A stretch of 56,391 nucleotides of DNA from a virus (IMGVR_UViG_3300011271_000006:1-56391); one strand, 5' to 3'. Shown: positions 36,157-43,056, counted from the first letter of the stretch. Made by a program: numbers and translations. Notes: generated from the letters alone by a model not told the origin.

Positions 36157-36399
36157 TTGACAACAGTTTCTAAGCATGAAATAAACAGTTTACCAAAGCA
36201 GGAATCTAGAAAAATGTTAAAATTAACCAAAGCTCAAAGAAACTGGTTAATCTCTATGAACCGGCATAGGCAATGGATTATAGGTCCAGGACGCAAAATG
36301 CGATATTTTCTCACCTCAAATGGTTTAATTGAACAAAACAAAGAAGGTGCATGGAGAATAACACAAAAAGGAATTAACTTAATAACTCCATCTTCCTAA
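36157..36399 (+). CDS. Small winged-helix-like hypothetical protein
   Basis: Likely start MLKLTKAQ; L...GLIE......WRIT.KG pattern. Confidence 0.5.
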   Translation: MTTVSKHEINSLPKQESRKMLKLTKAQRNWLISMNRHRQWIIGPGRKMRYFLTSNGLIEQNKEGAWRITQKGINLITPSS

Positions 36400-39300
36400 G
36401 AAAGAATGCTCGTTGAGTTGTTCCGTGCTTCGCAGAGAGTTCAACCTTATTAATTTCTCTAATTACATCACCATCAATCATGTTCTGAAGTGTTCGTTTG
36501 AGAGCCATTGTTGATCCTAATCTATCTAATCTAAATGCTGAACTAGCTATCAAACGTCTGCTCAAATAGGCATATGGAATAATTTTACTTTCATATATAT
36601 TCCGCTCAACACCATAAGATGATGCACGTTCCCAACCAATATTAAAATAATCTCTAATTACTCGAATAACTTCTTCTGTTTGCTTACTCTCACTTGATGA
36701 TTTACCAATCTCCCCACGATCAAACTTACCTGACAATGCGCGAATATCATTTTGAACCATATTAATTGACCATTGAACATATTCAGGAAGTACAATTGGA
36801 TCAGACATATTAACACCAATGGCAATAAGAGCAGATAGCTTCAAGACTTTCATATGCGCGCGGTTCCAGAGTTGCCGTAAAACCTCTTTCTGTGTAGCGT
36901 TAATTTGATCATCGGCAAATTTATCGAATTTCTTCAACAATTCTTCAGCATCTTTTGATGAAGCTATATTAATTACTCGCTTGTTGTACATAATCATTTC
37001 ACAATTGGCGGCAAGCGAAGCAAACTTTTCAATCAATGAGAACGAAGGTTGAGCTTCAAGGTGAGTGTGGGAAAGTGCTGGTCTCGCACCTTCATATTCA
37101 ACAATAAGAAATCGAGGTAGCAAACCATCAGCAATCATGTCCTCATTCAATGCACCATAAAATGTTGAAGGTGTACTTTCAGCAAGAATTGTGAATGAAG
37201 GCGAAACAGTTACATCAATGTTTTTATCCCTATCGGCATAAATTGTAGGACGAAATGATTGACCAAAGCCAGATTTGTGATATAAGTCTAAAAGCATTCG
37301 TTTGAGAGCTTTTTCAGCCGAATTGGAATGTGGGTTAGCTAACGCTTCTAATCTGAGACCGAATTCACCTAAGATGGAAACAAAACACTGAGAGACTTTA
37401 TTCAAATGTTTGATAAGAGCTTGACCACTTGCAATTTCGCTTGGACCGATGAAACCGATAGAGGTAGGAACTTGGAGGCGAATGGTATTCATCAAACGAT
37501 CTATTCCACTTGCCATTGCCTCCTTACCAGTATTATGATGAACTGTGAAATCAGCAGTTAAATATAAATGATCACCATCTAAGGTAAATCCAAAATATTC
37601 ACTATCAGAAAGTAATTCAATTTTAAATCCAGTTACTAACACATCTTTCTTTTGCTGGCGAGCTTTTGATTTCTTATATTCTAAAACAAGAGGTAATTCA
37701 CTTGTATTACCGCTAATGCTAACTCTATAATAAGTTCCACCTGTTCCATTTTGAGAGAGTTTTTCACAAGATTTTACATAAGCTGCATAACCAAGACTAC
37801 GAGCAATAAATACTACATCTTCAGCTAATTGCTTAGATTTAGAAATATAATCGTATGTATTACCGTTTGTTAAATTTCCATCAGTATCAAGTAAGCCAGC
37901 TAAAATTGCCATACGATCAAAACGAGAAGCAGTTTTATATATTAATGGAATAAATTTGTTTTCAGCTTTCTTTAACCATAAATTTAAATTTTGAATAGCA
38001 ATTTGTAATTGACTTTGACGACCATAATATACAGCGGAATAAGGATTTTTAATATAATTATCTTGAAAAGATTTATTACCAGAAACTTGAGTTGTGACAA
38101 CTTTCATATCAAAATGAAATTTAATAATATTTTTTGCTTTATTTCTAATACTTTCATCTTGACTGGTTAAAGCAATCCTAGGGCCAAATTGACCATCACC
38201 AATCATTGCTCCTAAAAACCAAGGATCAATAGGCAAGTGATTAGATTGAGTAAAATTTACCGCTTTACGCTCAAGTTTATTTCTATGTTTAAATTCATGA
38301 TTTTTATTAATCCAATCACATACTCGAATATTAGTTCTTTTTCTTGTAATTGTATCCACAAGAGATAAAATATGATTAATATTGACAATGAATTCTTGCC
38401 CCTTAGTAGGAATAATTTTAACCATTTGTTCTTTACCACGAGCAAGATTTAACACTTGACGTGATGAACTATCATAGCCCATAATAAGCTCATTAATTTG
38501 AATATCTTCTACGTTCTTTGTGGAACCATCATACATAAGAATTTTAGTTCCACGAGTATGACAACCTGTCTGTGCGAGTAGGAGGACATATTGGTTCAAA
38601 CCTGTGCCACTAATATTATAGGCACGCCCACAAACACCAGCCATTAAGCCAATGGCAGCAGCTAAGGCAATCTCAGGGACAGGGCGGGGAGCAGCTGCAT
38701 AGATAAATTGAGCAATCTCACCAAGCAAACCAGGAGGAATTTGAAGTGGAACATCATTTAAACGTGAATGGATGGTTGAATGTTGTTTTAGGACTTTTTT
38801 TTCTTGGTTTTTTAATTTATCTTCTAATGCAATTTTAAAGCCATCAAAATCTATCGGTGGCAACATACGATCAAACGACTTATTAATCATCCATATTAAA
38901 TAATCTTTACGTTTAGCTTTATCTCTAGTTCCAAGGCTAGATTTGTGGAAGATACGTATGATTTGGTTTCTGTTTTGAGTATAGAATGCAACAATATCAA
39001 TAAATGCGAAGTCTGCTTCGGATTGAGAAGGATATAATGATTGCCATTTTCCGCTGTAAAGATTTTTAAATTTATCTCCGTTGGCAGCATTAGAAGCTTG
39101 TTCAATGATTTGTTCATCTGTTTGCTTTTCCTTGTTGCTACCTCTGTAAACATTTGTTGCTATTCCTCCTGAACCCATTTGTTCATAAAGTTGAGTGAGA
39201 ATATGTTGACGATCAACAATTGGCTTGTTATTATAAACTTGACCAGTAAATGCAGCGTAACGACTTGATGAATATATTTCAATATAACTTCGTCGCCTGC

Positions 39301-39706
39301 CTTGTGGTATTGAACCTTTAATTATTATGTGTAGACCTTTACCAGAAGGTGAGATTTCAGACCAACTATCGAATTCTTTATATATTTTTAATTGTCGATC
39401 TAGCGCAACATTATCACCTTCCGTATCATCCAAATCAATAAATGTATAAGGGTCGCTATCAGTAAACACAAAACCAATCCCGCTATAACCATTGGATAGA
39501 TTATTAAGCACATTATCAAAACTAGACCAAGTGTCAGGATCACTAACACTCGCGAGCATATGCCTGATTGAATAAGGAACCTTCGTAGGCTTGGAAGCTC
39601 CAATATCTTCATTTTTCCACAGCACCCACTGATTTAATGCTTTCAATTCATCGGGAATATTGTTAAGAGATTTGCGCAATTCTTTTAGAATGTCGAAATA
39701 AGACAC
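36374..39706 (-). CDS. Primase-polymerase (NrS-1-like AEP) fused to a helicase, intein-containing
   Basis: IPDELK...QWVLW, FIDLDD, EISPSGKGLHII and SQSEAD motifs; P-loop AQTG/TGKE interrupted by an intein. Confidence 0.88.
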   Translation of the reverse strand: MSYFDILKELRKSLNNIPDELKALNQWVLWKNEDIGASKPTKVPYSIRHMLASVSDPDTWSSFDNVLNNLSNGYSGIGFVFTDSDPYTFIDLDDTEGDNVALDRQLKIYKEFDSWSEISPSGKGLHIIIKGSIPQGRRRSYIEIYSSSRYAAFTGQVYNNKPIVDRQHILTQLYEQMGSGGIATNVYRGSNKEKQTDEQIIEQASNAANGDKFKNLYSGKWQSLYPSQSEADFAFIDIVAFYTQNRNQIIRIFHKSSLGTRDKAKRKDYLIWMINKSFDRMLPPIDFDGFKIALEDKLKNQEKKVLKQHSTIHSRLNDVPLQIPPGLLGEIAQFIYAAAPRPVPEIALAAAIGLMAGVCGRAYNISGTGLNQYVLLLAQTGCHTRGTKILMYDGSTKNVEDIQINELIMGYDSSSRQVLNLARGKEQMVKIIPTKGQEFIVNINHILSLVDTITRKRTNIRVCDWINKNHEFKHRNKLERKAVNFTQSNHLPIDPWFLGAMIGDGQFGPRIALTSQDESIRNKAKNIIKFHFDMKVVTTQVSGNKSFQDNYIKNPYSAVYYGRQSQLQIAIQNLNLWLKKAENKFIPLIYKTASRFDRMAILAGLLDTDGNLTNGNTYDYISKSKQLAEDVVFIARSLGYAAYVKSCEKLSQNGTGGTYYRVSISGNTSELPLVLEYKKSKARQQKKDVLVTGFKIELLSDSEYFGFTLDGDHLYLTADFTVHHNTGKEAMASGIDRLMNTIRLQVPTSIGFIGPSEIASGQALIKHLNKVSQCFVSILGEFGLRLEALANPHSNSAEKALKRMLLDLYHKSGFGQSFRPTIYADRDKNIDVTVSPSFTILAESTPSTFYGALNEDMIADGLLPRFLIVEYEGARPALSHTHLEAQPSFSLIEKFASLAANCEMIMYNKRVINIASSKDAEELLKKFDKFADDQINATQKEVLRQLWNRAHMKVLKLSALIAIGVNMSDPIVLPEYVQWSINMVQNDIRALSGKFDRGEIGKSSSESKQTEEVIRVIRDYFNIGWERASSYGVERNIYESKIIPYAYLSRRLIASSAFRLDRLGSTMALKRTLQNMIDGDVIREINKVELSAKHGTTQRAFFLRKMELLS
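37532..38563 (-). mobile_element. Intein with LAGLIDADG endonuclease (344 aa)
   Basis: Starts CHTRGTKILMYDG, ends FTVHHN followed by Thr; internal LGAMIGDG and LAGLLDTDG. Confidence 0.95.
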
Positions 39707-39731
39707 TTCGCACTTGCCCTCAAAAGATAGA

Positions 39732-39905
39732 TTAATTCAAGCCTTCGAGATTTGCTTGATTATTTAATGCTATTCTTATTATTTGAGATATAGAAATGCG
39801 TTTCTTTAATCTTTGTTCGAAGCTTGATCGAAGCTTGATTAATAGTTCATTATCTTCTTGAGATAGGGCGATGCTGATGCGATGCTCTTTACCATTTGTG
39901 GGCAT
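39732..39905 (-). CDS. Small ribbon-helix-helix-like regulator
   Basis: RISIALSQED..LL..L.......ISISQIIRIAL; likely start MPTNG. Confidence 0.55.
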   Translation of the reverse strand: MPTNGKEHRISIALSQEDNELLIKLRSSFEQRLKKRISISQIIRIALNNQANLEGLN

Positions 39906-39990
39906 ATTTTTATTCGCCTTTAAGTTGAAAAATGAGTGAGGGTTGCCTAGCTGGCACAAAAATAATTAAATCGTCAAGTAGTGAACTCGC

Positions 39991-40019
39991 TTGACTTGAA
40001 AATTTTAGGTAGGTAGACT
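39991..40019 (+). promoter_or_regulatory. Sigma70-type promoter for the replication operon
   Basis: TTGACT-17 nt-TAGACT at the strand divergence point. Confidence 0.6.
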
Positions 40020-40204
40020 TGTGATTGTCTTAATGGTGATATTCAAATGTATATTTATCCTCTTTATAATATTGAACCTAGCGGTTTACCAAAACAAAAT
40101 GTTTATGTTGATTTTGAAGATCATACAATTATTTGGTTTGCAGAAACAGGTGAAGTAAAAACATTTTGTAATAACTATACAACTTATGAAGTTAAAAATT
40201 ATAG

Positions 40205-40438
40205 TTGGGAATTAAATATATGAATAATAAAATTGTTGAAATGGTTCCTACCAAAACTGATTATGAAACAGCTAAAGAAATAAAAGAAGAAGTGATTAAG
40301 CTCTATGAACCACTTCTCAAGCTATTAGCTGATGCTAATCGCAAAGGCTTTCAAGTACAAGTTGGCTGTGGTTTAGGTCCATTAGGTAATTATGTTATTC
40401 AACAGCTTCAAATAGTGAAAGTATTTAAGGATGAATAA
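40205..40438 (+). CDS. Hypothetical protein
   Basis: 77-aa ORF. Confidence 0.55.
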   Translation: MGIKYMNNKIVEMVPTKTDYETAKEIKEEVIKLYEPLLKLLADANRKGFQVQVGCGLGPLGNYVIQQLQIVKVFKDE

Positions 40439-40600
40439 TAATGGCTTTTGAATTTGATATAGCTGTTAACGATAGTAAATGGAAGCGAGTAAATCGCCGT
40501 ATGATAAATTGGCAAGAGAAAAGAAAGTAATAGATAACTTCCTAGATTTATATGGTCCCTTAAGTAAAAACAAATCTATCTATTCGAATTCATAAGGTAA

Positions 40601-41167
40601 TTGAAAATGACTAATAAATTTGAAACATGGGGAGTTAGTCATAAGGATAACTTTTGGTCCTCAACTCCTGCTTGGCCTAATCGTCAAAACTTATCTGTTC
40701 CTATTCCTTCGCCTGATCCTATGACACTTTATGACGCTATGTCACGTGATGAAGTGCTAATTGAATGGGACCAGCGCAAGCGACAATTGGAGAAGGCTAA
40801 AGAAGCGGAAATGGAAATGCGCCAGTACATAGTCAAGCGTGCATTCCCTGATCCAAAAGAAGGAGTAAACCGAGTTGAGCTTGGTAATGGTTATGAATTA
40901 AAAGCAACTGTTAAATATCATTATAATCTCGATAGTGATCTTGACAAGGTTGAAGCAGCGTTAGAAGCCATTGAAAAAGTTGGTAATATTGGACCTTTTA
41001 TGGCCGAAAGGCTTGTAAAATTCGAGGCAAAATTTCTATTGACAGAATACAGAAAATTATGTGACCCTCTTGCGGGGGAAGATGAGAAAAAAATTAAGAA
41101 AATAATTGATAGCGTTCTTACAATAATAGATGCTTCTCCTACATTAGAAATTAAAAAACCAAAGTGA
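40601..41167 (+). CDS. Conserved phage replication-region protein
   Basis: KEAEME.R..IV...F..PKEG.N..ELGNGY.LK...K..Y; C-terminal LTI.DA.PTLEI. Confidence 0.7.
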   Translation: MKMTNKFETWGVSHKDNFWSSTPAWPNRQNLSVPIPSPDPMTLYDAMSRDEVLIEWDQRKRQLEKAKEAEMEMRQYIVKRAFPDPKEGVNRVELGNGYELKATVKYHYNLDSDLDKVEAALEAIEKVGNIGPFMAERLVKFEAKFLLTEYRKLCDPLAGEDEKKIKKIIDSVLTIIDASPTLEIKKPK

Positions 41168-41850
41168 GAATATCTGGTATATATACTATTTTAAATATAG
41201 TAAATAATAAACTATATATTGGAAGCGCTATATATATTAAAGCTCGAATTAATGGACATAAAACAGAGTTAAATCAAAAAAGACATGGTAATTCATATCT
41301 TCAAGCAGCATGGAATAAATATGGAGCTAATAATTTCTTTTTTATTATCTTAGAAACTATTGAAGATAAAACAAAATTAACTGAAAGAGAACAATATTAT
41401 ATAGATGTGTTTTCATCAAATAATAGAAAAATTGGATATAATTTAAGACCTTTTGCAAATAATAACATAGGTGTTAAACATTCAGAACAAACTAAACTAA
41501 AACTGTCAAAAATTAGTAGAGGAAGAAAACTTACAGAAGAAGCTAAAATTAAATTATCCTTGGCTATAAAAGGAATAAAAAAATCTTCAACTATAAATAT
41601 GCGCAAACCTAAATCAGAAGATCATAAAAGAAAATTATCATTAATTCGTCAGGGAACGAAACTTTCAGAAGAAACTAAGATTAAAATAGGTAATAGTGGG
41701 CGAGATAAAAGTAAGTGGCCATGTGAAGATGGTAACAAATGTAAATGCGAAAAATGTAAAGCAAAAAGAAACGAGTATTATAGAAATAAATATCCGTTAT
41801 ATAGAAATAATCTTATAGGAAGTAGATTAAGAAATGAAGAAGGTGATTGA
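41164..41850 (+). mobile_element. GIY-YIG homing endonuclease with NUMOD3 repeats
   Basis: SGIY.I.N..N.K.YIGSA...K.R, REQYYID, GYN, HSEQTK.K.S / LSEETK.KI repeats. Confidence 0.92.
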
Positions 41851-41920
41851 TAGTGTGCTTACGATTACTGATGCTGTTCCAACATTAGCGATTATAGAGC
41901 CAAAGGTGAAAAAGAAATGA
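41834..41920 (+). pseudogene. Displaced duplicate 3' end of the 40601-41167 gene (28-aa mini-ORF)
   Basis: MKKVIDSVLTITDAVPTLAIIEPKVKKK versus KKIIDSVLTIIDASPTLEIKKPK at 41096-41167. Confidence 0.85.
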
Positions 41921-42138
41921 ATGAAGGTAAATCATTAGATTACATAAAAGGATGGCAAGATGCTGTGAATTTTGGTAAGCATCCTAAAATTTTAGCTATA
42001 GAAGAAGTTGATGATTTATTAAAAAAGTGTGAAATAGGAATTATTCAAGGGCCTTCTAATTCTTCATGTGATATGATAGTTCCTGCTGAAGCATTACACG
42101 AATTATTAATGTTATGGAAAATAGTTAGATTAAAATGA
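41917..42138 (+). CDS. Hypothetical protein
   Basis: 73 aa; ATGA coupling. Confidence 0.55.
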   Translation: MNEGKSLDYIKGWQDAVNFGKHPKILAIEEVDDLLKKCEIGIIQGPSNSSCDMIVPAEALHELLMLWKIVRLK

Positions 42139-42187
42139 AGAAGCAAAAATTTCATGGTGAATTTGCTTATTCTGAAAAGGATAAGCT

Positions 42188-42880
42188 ATGAACATGAACG
42201 ATTTAAGACCTGCTAAAGATTTTGCTTGTAGATTTGGTGTTAAATGCATTATCTATGGCCCACCAGGATCAGGCAAAACGCCTCTAATCAATACTGCTCC
42301 TAGACCTGTTCTATTAGTTACTGAACCTGGAATGCTTTCTATGCGTAATTCTACTGTTCCAACATTTCAAGCTTTTAGTGGTAAGCTTATTGATGACTTT
42401 TTCACTTGGTTCTTTACCTCTGCTGAGAGCAAAAATTTTGATACAATCGCTATTGACAGTATTAGTCAATTAGCTGATGTTTATTTGCAAGAAGCTTTAA
42501 AGGGCATTAGCAAAAGTGGTCAGAAGAAACATGGTTTAGCGGCATATGGTGAAATGGCTACGAATGCACTTGAACACTTAAATGCTCTTTATTTTACTCA
42601 ACATAAGCATACTTACTTAGTAGCCAAGCAAGAAATCATAAGCGAGAATGGCTTAACTTTGAAACGTCCTTATTTTCCAGGTAAGCAACTCCCCGTCGAA
42701 ATGCCACATAAGTATGATGAAATCTTACAACTTGATATTCAAAATATACCTGGATATGGTCAATATAAAGCTTTTCGTTGCATAGGTTCAATTGATTGTA
42801 CTGCTCGTGATAGAACCGGAATGTTGAATGAATTTGAACCTCCTGACTTCAGCGCATTAGTGAAAAAGGCAATGCAATAA
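42188..42880 (+). CDS. AAA_24 / Sak4-like ATPase (recombinase)
   Basis: IYGPPGSGKT, EPG..S, DTIAIDSIS, ARDRTG.L..FE motifs. Confidence 0.85.
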   Translation: MNMNDLRPAKDFACRFGVKCIIYGPPGSGKTPLINTAPRPVLLVTEPGMLSMRNSTVPTFQAFSGKLIDDFFTWFFTSAESKNFDTIAIDSISQLADVYLQEALKGISKSGQKKHGLAAYGEMATNALEHLNALYFTQHKHTYLVAKQEIISENGLTLKRPYFPGKQLPVEMPHKYDEILQLDIQNIPGYGQYKAFRCIGSIDCTARDRTGMLNEFEPPDFSALVKKAMQ

Positions 42881-43056
42881 TGCCTAAGTCTGAACTATTT
42901 GATTTAGCTGCTAAGAAAGTTGGTGAAACGAATAAAGCTTTTCGCTTATTCGATGGCGTTAAGACTGAATGGGTTCCTAAATCACAAGTTGAAGATAATG
43001 GCGATGGAACGTTTACAATGCCAGAATGGTTAGCAGTTGAAAAGGGTTTTGTATGA
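42880..43056 (+). CDS. Small conserved phage protein, 58 aa, not in the ORF track
   Basis: MPKSELFDLAAKKVGETNKAFRLFDGVKTEWVPKSQVEDNGDGTFTMPEWLAVEKGFV; coupled at both ends. Confidence 0.75.
   Translation: MPKSELFDLAAKKVGETNKAFRLFDGVKTEWVPKSQVEDNGDGTFTMPEWLAVEKGFV

Follow-up and report, generated by a model that had tools for sequence, protein, structure and literature searches.

Free-standing endonucleases of bacteriophage T4 belonging to the Seg and Mob groups spread by intronless homing, during which flanking markers are co-converted. Belle et al. are said to have described in 2002, for SegF, intronless homing by such a free-standing phage endonuclease, and Parker, Belisle and Belfort reportedly demonstrated in 1999 that a T4 intron can be acquired by illegitimate double-strand-break repair with one-sided homology. 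Here we describe a locus of the virus IMGVR_UViG_3300011271_000006, a complete viral genome of 56,391 bp with direct terminal repeats that originates from soil metagenomes (the whole stretch is called the window hereafter), in which a GIY-YIG homing endonuclease gene is found between a gene of the DUF7173 family and a second copy of that gene's 3′ end. The locus resembles the Seg and Mob systems in having a free-standing GIY-YIG gene between conserved genes, sporadically distributed among relatives and accompanied by what appear to be co-converted flanking markers, and it resembles T4 intron acquisition in that one-sided homology would have led to partial duplication of recipient sequence. It differs from these T4 systems, which are experimental and belong to T-even coliphages, in being a natural phage genome.

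A similar arrangement is known from fungal mitochondria, where mobile endonuclease reading frames called mORFs have been described in atp6, atp9, cox2 and nad3 of Glomus sp. and in atp6 of Allomyces macrogynus, the latter case being cited within the same paper (PMC3630166). In the passages of this paper that concern Glomus, the native C-termini are 91-98% identical to those of a relative while the inserted ones reach 64-81%, and one of the cases, atp9, has a GIY-YIG enzyme (PMC3630166). What is described there agrees with the window in that the gene core is followed by a foreign C-terminus, an endonuclease open reading frame (ORF) and, downstream, the native C-terminus, with the native copy being nearer to the endonuclease-free relative. 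However, mORFs are found in organelles whereas the window is the genome of a tailed phage, and the atp6 and nad3 endonucleases are fused in frame to the host gene whereas the enzyme of the window is encoded by a separate ORF coupled to it through a GTGA overlap. Moreover, unlike what these passages describe for mORFs, the leftover gene end of the window abuts and overlaps the start of the next gene, and the relatives of the phage carry this endonuclease family as a plain intergenic gene.

In yeasts of the genera Torulaspora and Lachancea, WHO elements, relatives of HO, home into FBA1, where the displaced 3′ end persists as a fragment (PMC7282813). The 5′ and 3′ parts of FBA1 produce discordant trees, with 99% vs 85% identity on either side of the cut (PMC7282813), and this discordant ancestry is shared by the DUF7173 gene of the window. 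In contrast to the GIY-YIG enzyme of the phage, WHO enzymes are described as intein-like LAGLIDADG proteins with zinc fingers that act in a nuclear genome. According to the same source, WHO fragments accumulate in clusters and are proposed to be a needed homology arm, whereas the window holds a single fragment and none of 13 endonuclease-bearing relatives carries one. The same logic is already established in fungal mitochondria and yeasts, and the window introduces no new principle. To our knowledge, no natural phage genome has been described in which gene core, new tail, endonuclease gene and old tail follow each other. A search of the full-text literature for this layout in phages did not find it; subscription journals lay largely outside the scope of that search, so that the layout may still have been reported. 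Nucleases at exchange boundaries are the subject of a phage survey (PMC10448857), which contains no passage on duplicated target ends.

A chimeric DUF7173 gene and the remnant of its former end

The DUF7173 gene of the window is a chimera with a break at position 40965. This is seen by comparison with L109, a metagenome contig that represents the nearest endonuclease-free relative for which DNA is available; it encodes the DUF7173 protein P0003 and has no endonuclease gene beside it. Identity to L109 amounts to 83.3% in the upstream neighbouring gene (40220-40441) and to 85.3% (220/258) over positions 40708-40965 of DUF7173, and falls to 58.8% (117/199) in the remaining 3′ part of the gene (40966-41164). 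In windows of 45 nucleotides (nt) it is 82-93% over 40738-40918 and 42-67% from 40948 on. The DUF7173 end that follows the endonuclease gene (41830-41920, below called the leftover) is again 84.6% (77/91) identical to L109, vs 72% (54/75) for the tail in use (41090-41164). A reading of this DNA made beforehand from the sequence alone (the sequence-only reading) had predicted that the downstream copy should be the one nearer to endonuclease-free relatives, which is what the comparison shows. Since the downstream copy is closer to L109 than the tail in use, it is the end that originally belonged to the resident gene, and the foreign one is the tail in use. The features of the locus, all on the + strand, are the following.

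40607-41167, +: DUF7173 gene (Pfam PF23791, E 7.8e-34 for the whole gene)
40607-40965, +: resident 5′ part of DUF7173, codons 1-119 (bases 40708-40965 85.3% identical to L109)
40966-41167, +: imported 3′ part of DUF7173, codons 120-186 and stop, the tail in use (58.8% identical to L109)
41077-41164, +: repeated tail, upstream copy, inside the gene in use (65/88 bases match 41818-41905)
41164-41850, +: GIY-YIG/NUMOD3 homing endonuclease gene, 228 residues (PF01541, E 2.1e-12; PF07460, E 1.5e-8)
41829/41830, +: right junction between imported block and resident DNA (L109 homology begins abruptly at 41830)
41830-41920, +: leftover of the resident DUF7173 3′ end (77/91 bases identical to L109 1125-1215)
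41834-41920, +: ORF of 28 codons within the leftover (DUF7173 profile positions 120-145 of 145, E 0.0012)
41917-42138, +: orf73, 73 codons, the next gene (no Pfam match)
42188-42880, +: Sak4-like AAA_24 gene, conserved right border of the variable slot (PF13479, E 1.8e-19)

The upstream gene ends in KKIIDSVLTIIDASPTLEIKKPK, with its stop at 41167, and this stop is overlapped by the GTG start of the endonuclease gene in the form GTGA. The 28-codon ORF reads MKKVIDSVLTITDAVPTLAIIEPKVKKK; its ATG lies 17 nt within the endonuclease ORF, and its stop overlaps the ATG of orf73 (41917) as ATGA. The composition of the imported DNA is also distinct, the fraction of guanine plus cytosine (GC) being 0.255 in the endonuclease gene (41164-41829) and 0.327 in the imported tail, as compared with 0.407 in the resident 5′ part and 0.359 in the genome.

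The recurrence of the DUF7173 3′ end after the endonuclease gene is confirmed. Within the last 23 codons, which had been noticed as repeated, 17 of 23 residues are shared, the differences being purely synonymous in six codons and altering the residue in six others; in register, the two copies have 56/75 bases in common. Chance as an explanation of the repeat is excluded by four results taken together. The DUF7173 profile matches the 28-codon ORF over its last 26 positions (at a strength under the curated cut-off), and a tblastn search of the phage's own genome with the DUF7173 gene recovers the second copy (E 2.2e-5). When the tail is aligned locally with the downstream region the score is 83, whereas 100 shuffled tails reach at most 39, and the downstream copy matches the true 3′ end of the L109 gene over 77/91 bases with an E-value of 1e-23. 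The second copy had also been credited with an ATG of its own and with a stop that overlaps the next start; the overlap is real, whereas the ATG is not new but corresponds to a native internal methionine, found in the motif REMKKV of the homologues P0002 and P0003.

Comparisons with larger sets of relatives give the same division of the gene. A search of 5.8 billion proteins returned 72 DUF7173 homologues besides the window's own, and among these residues 40-119 are 100% identical to P0002, 91% to P0003 and 75% to the next homologue, whereas for residues 120-186 the best match is P0012 at 72%, with P0003 at 60% and P0002 at 54%. The leftover shares 24/28 residues with P0003. When 160 DUF7173 loci (80 viral and 80 from metagenomes) were compared, the 5′ part was closest to L109 (83%, the second-best identity being 61%), and so was the leftover (86%, with 77% for the runner-up), while for the 3′ part the best locus was L029 (66%) and L109, at 60%, ranked only fifth, with the window itself ranking ahead of it. 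A low-depth contig of an L109-like strain differs from the window at 17 positions over 40839-40965 and diverges from exactly 40965 into sequence of the L109 type, an independent marker of the left breakpoint. P0002 looks like the intact recipient allele, but it is an entry of a protein-level catalogue that has no contig and could itself be an assembly chimera, so that little weight is given to it.

The order of gene core, replacement 3′ end, endonuclease gene and old 3′ end, as originally read, is thereby borne out by the L109 comparison, and so is the idea that a replacement end was brought in. Its size has to be corrected, from 23 codons to about 67 codons together with the endonuclease gene (40966-41829). 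The term "recoded", by which the new tail had been described, does not hold either: with 6/23 shared codons changing the residue, and with a best match of no more than 72% for the imported part, the tail is a foreign allele.

A metagenome assembly could in principle join two co-occurring strains, and the same runs do contain an L109-like strain, with a depth of 2.3 vs 11.3, about one fifth; P0002 also indicates that mixed forms can be produced or exist. Nevertheless, the repeat is unlikely to have been misassembled. Exact words common to the two tail copies reach 9 nt at most, too short to mislead an assembler, the right junction is without shared sequence, and the leftover is only 84.6% identical to L109. 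Contigs of 15 kb produced by an independent assembler from two runs reproduce positions 39900-42459 with 0 differences, which is weak support as these runs may be the window's own source. An artefactual origin of the whole arrangement is, in our view, scarcely credible. The window-bearing runs additionally contain low-depth contigs of a related strain that correspond to 40383-40438, 40839-40965 and 42430-42610, with 6 to 18 differences per piece; potential partners for DNA exchange thus co-occur with the phage in the sample.

The endonuclease gene and the slot between DUF7173 and Sak4

Compared with L109 without gaps, the window shows no similarity up to 41829 and an abrupt onset of it at 41830. 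As a consequence of this position, the last 6 codons of the endonuclease ORF (RNEEGD) and its stop (41830-41850) are read from the leftover, in a frame other than that of DUF7173. Between a KRN motif of the endonuclease and the junction there are 19 residues, and in the homologue of locus L074 19 residues follow the corresponding RRN before the stop; this spacing indicates that the imported block ends at, or within about a codon of, the natural stop of the endonuclease. Residues 4-95 of the protein align with the catalytic domain of I-TevI (E 2e-9), and it has R and E where the mutant crystal chains 1ln0 and 1mk0 carry an engineered A, at the catalytic positions R27 and E75. The NUMOD3 module, a DNA-binding module, is encoded 3′ of the GIY-YIG catalytic domain according to Pfam, and a Cys-rich stretch, WPCEDGNKCKCEKCK, is shared with the homologues in L046, L054, L055 and L074. 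The catalytic motif is intact and without sign of decay, and the gene is predicted to encode an enzyme. Its nearest viral homologue is 54% identical over 118 residues. Single-protein scans of viral and genome contigs yielded no close relatives, and the matches in a phage collection, to the endonuclease and to Sak4, were all distant (60-80%).

Of the 160 loci, 143 are non-redundant, and 118 of these cover the DUF7173 3′ end together with the start of a Sak4 gene downstream of it. The two genes are 9 to 3587 nt apart, so that the space between them is a variable slot. A GIY-YIG homologue (31-45% identical to that of the window) is present between them in 13/118 loci, with 105 lacking it; in 9/13 the GIY-YIG match begins 12-23 nt past the end of the DUF7173 match, and in all six loci for which ORF lists were checked (L039, L041, L046, L054, L055 and L074) its start overlaps the DUF7173 stop. 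This endonuclease family therefore normally occurs as a free-standing gene just after DUF7173. The left junction of the window, GTGA, conforms to this arrangement, and only its right junction is unusual. None of the 13 endonuclease-bearing relatives holds a leftover DUF7173 tail after the endonuclease, the best scores staying within the shuffled range; in L147 a Lys-rich part of the endonuclease gene scored 35, where shuffled tails reached up to 34. As the 13 endonucleases are distant, this fragment test is weak with respect to the window's own element.

These observations bear on the proposal of the sequence-only reading that the endonuclease inserted without an intron inside the gene, as a cassette. 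Homing without an intron agrees with the explanation favoured below. The relatives have the endonuclease gene after the DUF7173 stop and carry no leftover, so that ordinary intergenic homing with an illegitimate right end is a better reading than a purpose-built in-gene element.

The gene that follows DUF7173 varies between phages. L109 has an unrelated 56-codon gene there, and orf73 of the window has no tblastn match in the first 80 related viral loci, nor elsewhere in the window. The final bases of DUF7173 are strikingly uniform despite the varying downstream gene, being GAAATGA in most of the loci L029-L188, and the end of the DUF7173 gene may serve as a shared docking sequence for the occupants of the slot.

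Copies of gene ends are found around this slot in other phages as well. An alignment scan revealed six loci with DUF7173 tail copies. In L087 (3375-3441 and 4048-4114) and L088 the copies are identical over 67/67 bases and the second one forms the end of an inserted 205-codon ORF. In L052 (2852-2906 and 3037-3091) they are identical over 55/55 bases, with the copy embedded in the downstream ORF, and in L131 (3440-3471 and 4039-4070) over 32/32 bases, with the copy just before an endonuclease gene and after three small inserted genes. In L116 (421-477 and 773-829) they match at 42/57 bases, after a 75-codon ORF, and in L120 (1271-1286 and 1446-1461) at 14/16 bases of DNA and over 18 residues of protein. 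None of the cargo in these cases (the 205-codon ORF, the 75-codon ORF and the three small genes) is an endonuclease. In the window, L087, L116, L120 and L131, the stop that closes the leftover tail overlaps the start of the following gene. At the opposite border, the GIY-YIG ORFs of L184 (239-874), L061 (3770-4399) and L054 (4046-4639) start with an in-frame copy of the first 12-18 codons of Sak4, as exemplified by MNINDLKAAGDFAQNFGC, which is followed by SGIY. Judging from these reading frames, the three nucleases would be translated from a duplicated Sak4 start, a mirror image of the arrangement in the window. A Sak4 5′ copy without a nuclease gene is present in L152 (3677-3781). Four further apparent Sak4 5′ duplicates, in L091, L081, L186 and L187, were self-matches arising from the way the region had been delimited and are not counted. 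Together, these cases suggest that genes are repeatedly inserted at the DUF7173-Sak4 junction and that gene ends are duplicated there.

The identical tail copies of L087, L052 and L131 could speak for a simpler origin, in which the tail was duplicated within the genome, one copy diverged in place and the endonuclease gene was inserted between the two, with no foreign DUF7173 involved. For the window we consider this highly improbable. Divergence covers 202 nt (40966-41167), over twice the extent of the duplication (88-91 nt), an identity of 59% to L109 cannot be reconciled with about 85% in every flanking segment, and the imported part is shifted in GC as well.

A possible route of arrival

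The left junction lies within homologous DUF7173 sequence, and the right junction is abrupt. The explanation that we favour, and regard as probable, is that a free-standing GIY-YIG gene arrived by intronless homing, in the course of which the left flank was co-converted and the right end was joined illegitimately. The donor would have been a diverged relative in which the endonuclease gene directly followed the DUF7173 stop and was itself followed by some other gene. The enzyme would have cut the endonuclease-free DUF7173 allele of the phage's ancestor near its 3′ end, and repair would have copied the donor, the left exchange being resolved by homology within DUF7173 at 40965, so that about 67 donor codons were co-converted along with the endonuclease gene. 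On the right side, donor and recipient would have had no matching sequence, and the end of the copied block may have been attached, in a join needing no homology, to the resident DNA at 41830, where this had been broken or resected. An illegitimate right join is suggested by the lack of right-hand homology, given that the resident orf73 was not found in the 80 related viral loci. The products expected from these steps are a working chimeric DUF7173 gene, an endonuclease ORF with its last 6 codons and stop borrowed from the resident sequence, and a 91-nt leftover of the old tail, which would retain both the native stop/start overlap and the stretch with the ribosome-binding site of orf73.

Two other routes were considered and rejected. 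Had a circular fragment integrated in the Campbell manner, all of the resident tail beyond the crossover, 67 codons instead of 28, would have remained. An arrival of orf73 and the leftover as the incoming cassette is contradicted by the finding that the DUF7173 5′ part and the leftover share the L109 lineage, the middle being the odd one out.

Several points weigh against homing with an illegitimate right end. The donor was not found, the best match of the imported tail being 72% and that of the endonuclease 54%. That the right junction coincides with the very end of the endonuclease gene is more orderly than a random illegitimate join would lead one to expect. In addition, the leftover differs from P0002 at 2/18 overlapping residues while the 5′ part differs at 0/119 (Fisher p 0.018, computed as 2/19); these differences fit decay of the leftover, or else its arrival with the element. 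Finally, that the endonuclease cleaves DUF7173, where it would cut and that the new tail would resist it are predictions drawn from the sequence.

The tidy junction and the two differences from P0002, which would give the leftover a separate history, would be accommodated if the block were a composite mobile element, a phage version of the strategy of WHO elements and mORFs. Such an element would be a three-part unit consisting of a resistant 3′ end, the endonuclease gene and a tail fragment, the fragment serving as right homology arm and as coupler; units of this kind would turn over in the DUF7173-Sak4 slot, and the end duplications would be their scars. This would be the same architecture as that described for mORFs (PMC3630166) and for WHO elements, where the fragment is proposed to act as recombination site (PMC7282813). 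The leftover frame is still open, with its native ATG and stop/start overlap kept, and end duplications recur around the slot in other loci. On the other hand, no tail fragment accompanies the 13 related endonucleases, distant as these are, and no second copy of the block (tail, endonuclease and fragment) was found in viral or metagenome collections. At the junction the endonuclease ORF is deprived of its own stop, as if by accident, and the comparison with P0002 depends on a protein-level assembly. We judge a composite element to be unlikely. If this reading were correct, the scars would comprise the six loci with DUF7173 tail copies and the four with Sak4 5′ copies, three of the latter being fused in frame to a nuclease.

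The retained tail, its surroundings and what the locus records

In 91 of 135 non-redundant relatives a start codon overlaps the stop of DUF7173 (79 as NTGA and 12 as TAATG or TGATG), a count of start codons rather than of confirmed genes. A stop/start overlap is thus the common state of the DUF7173 3′ junction, whatever gene follows. In the window, the leftover keeps this native overlap for orf73 and also contains AAGGTGA, 9-15 nt upstream of the orf73 ATG, where L109 has AAAGCGA. It is plausible, from these sequence features, that the retained old tail kept orf73 translatable and acted as a translational coupler. A scan of 39700-43000 for promoters and terminators yielded 16 promoter-like sites vs 15.0 expected and 0 terminators vs 1.2 expected, which provides nothing usable.

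The locus is adjacent to a 1110-residue ORF on the - strand (36374-39706), which resembles a primase/helicase-type protein split by an intein with a homing endonuclease domain. The intein-like stretch runs from AQTG, after which it begins with CHTRGTKILMYDG, to FTVHHN, followed by TGKEAM, as judged by eye from the translation. If this reading is right, the genome carries two kinds of selfish nuclease elements.

Under the homing reading preferred above, the locus would constitute a natural record of one homing event in an uncultured phage, with both junctions mapped to the base, a co-conversion tract of about 200 nt and the old allele lying beside the new one. It also provides a candidate target for the enzyme, namely the 3′ end of L109-type or P0003-type DUF7173 alleles, either at the equivalent of 41830 or further downstream. 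The recurrent duplication of gene ends in the DUF7173-Sak4 slot bears on the formation of mosaic boundaries in phage genomes. More generally, the locus would illustrate how the end of a conserved recombination-module gene can be rewritten by a selfish nuclease while that gene stays intact and the next one stays coupled.

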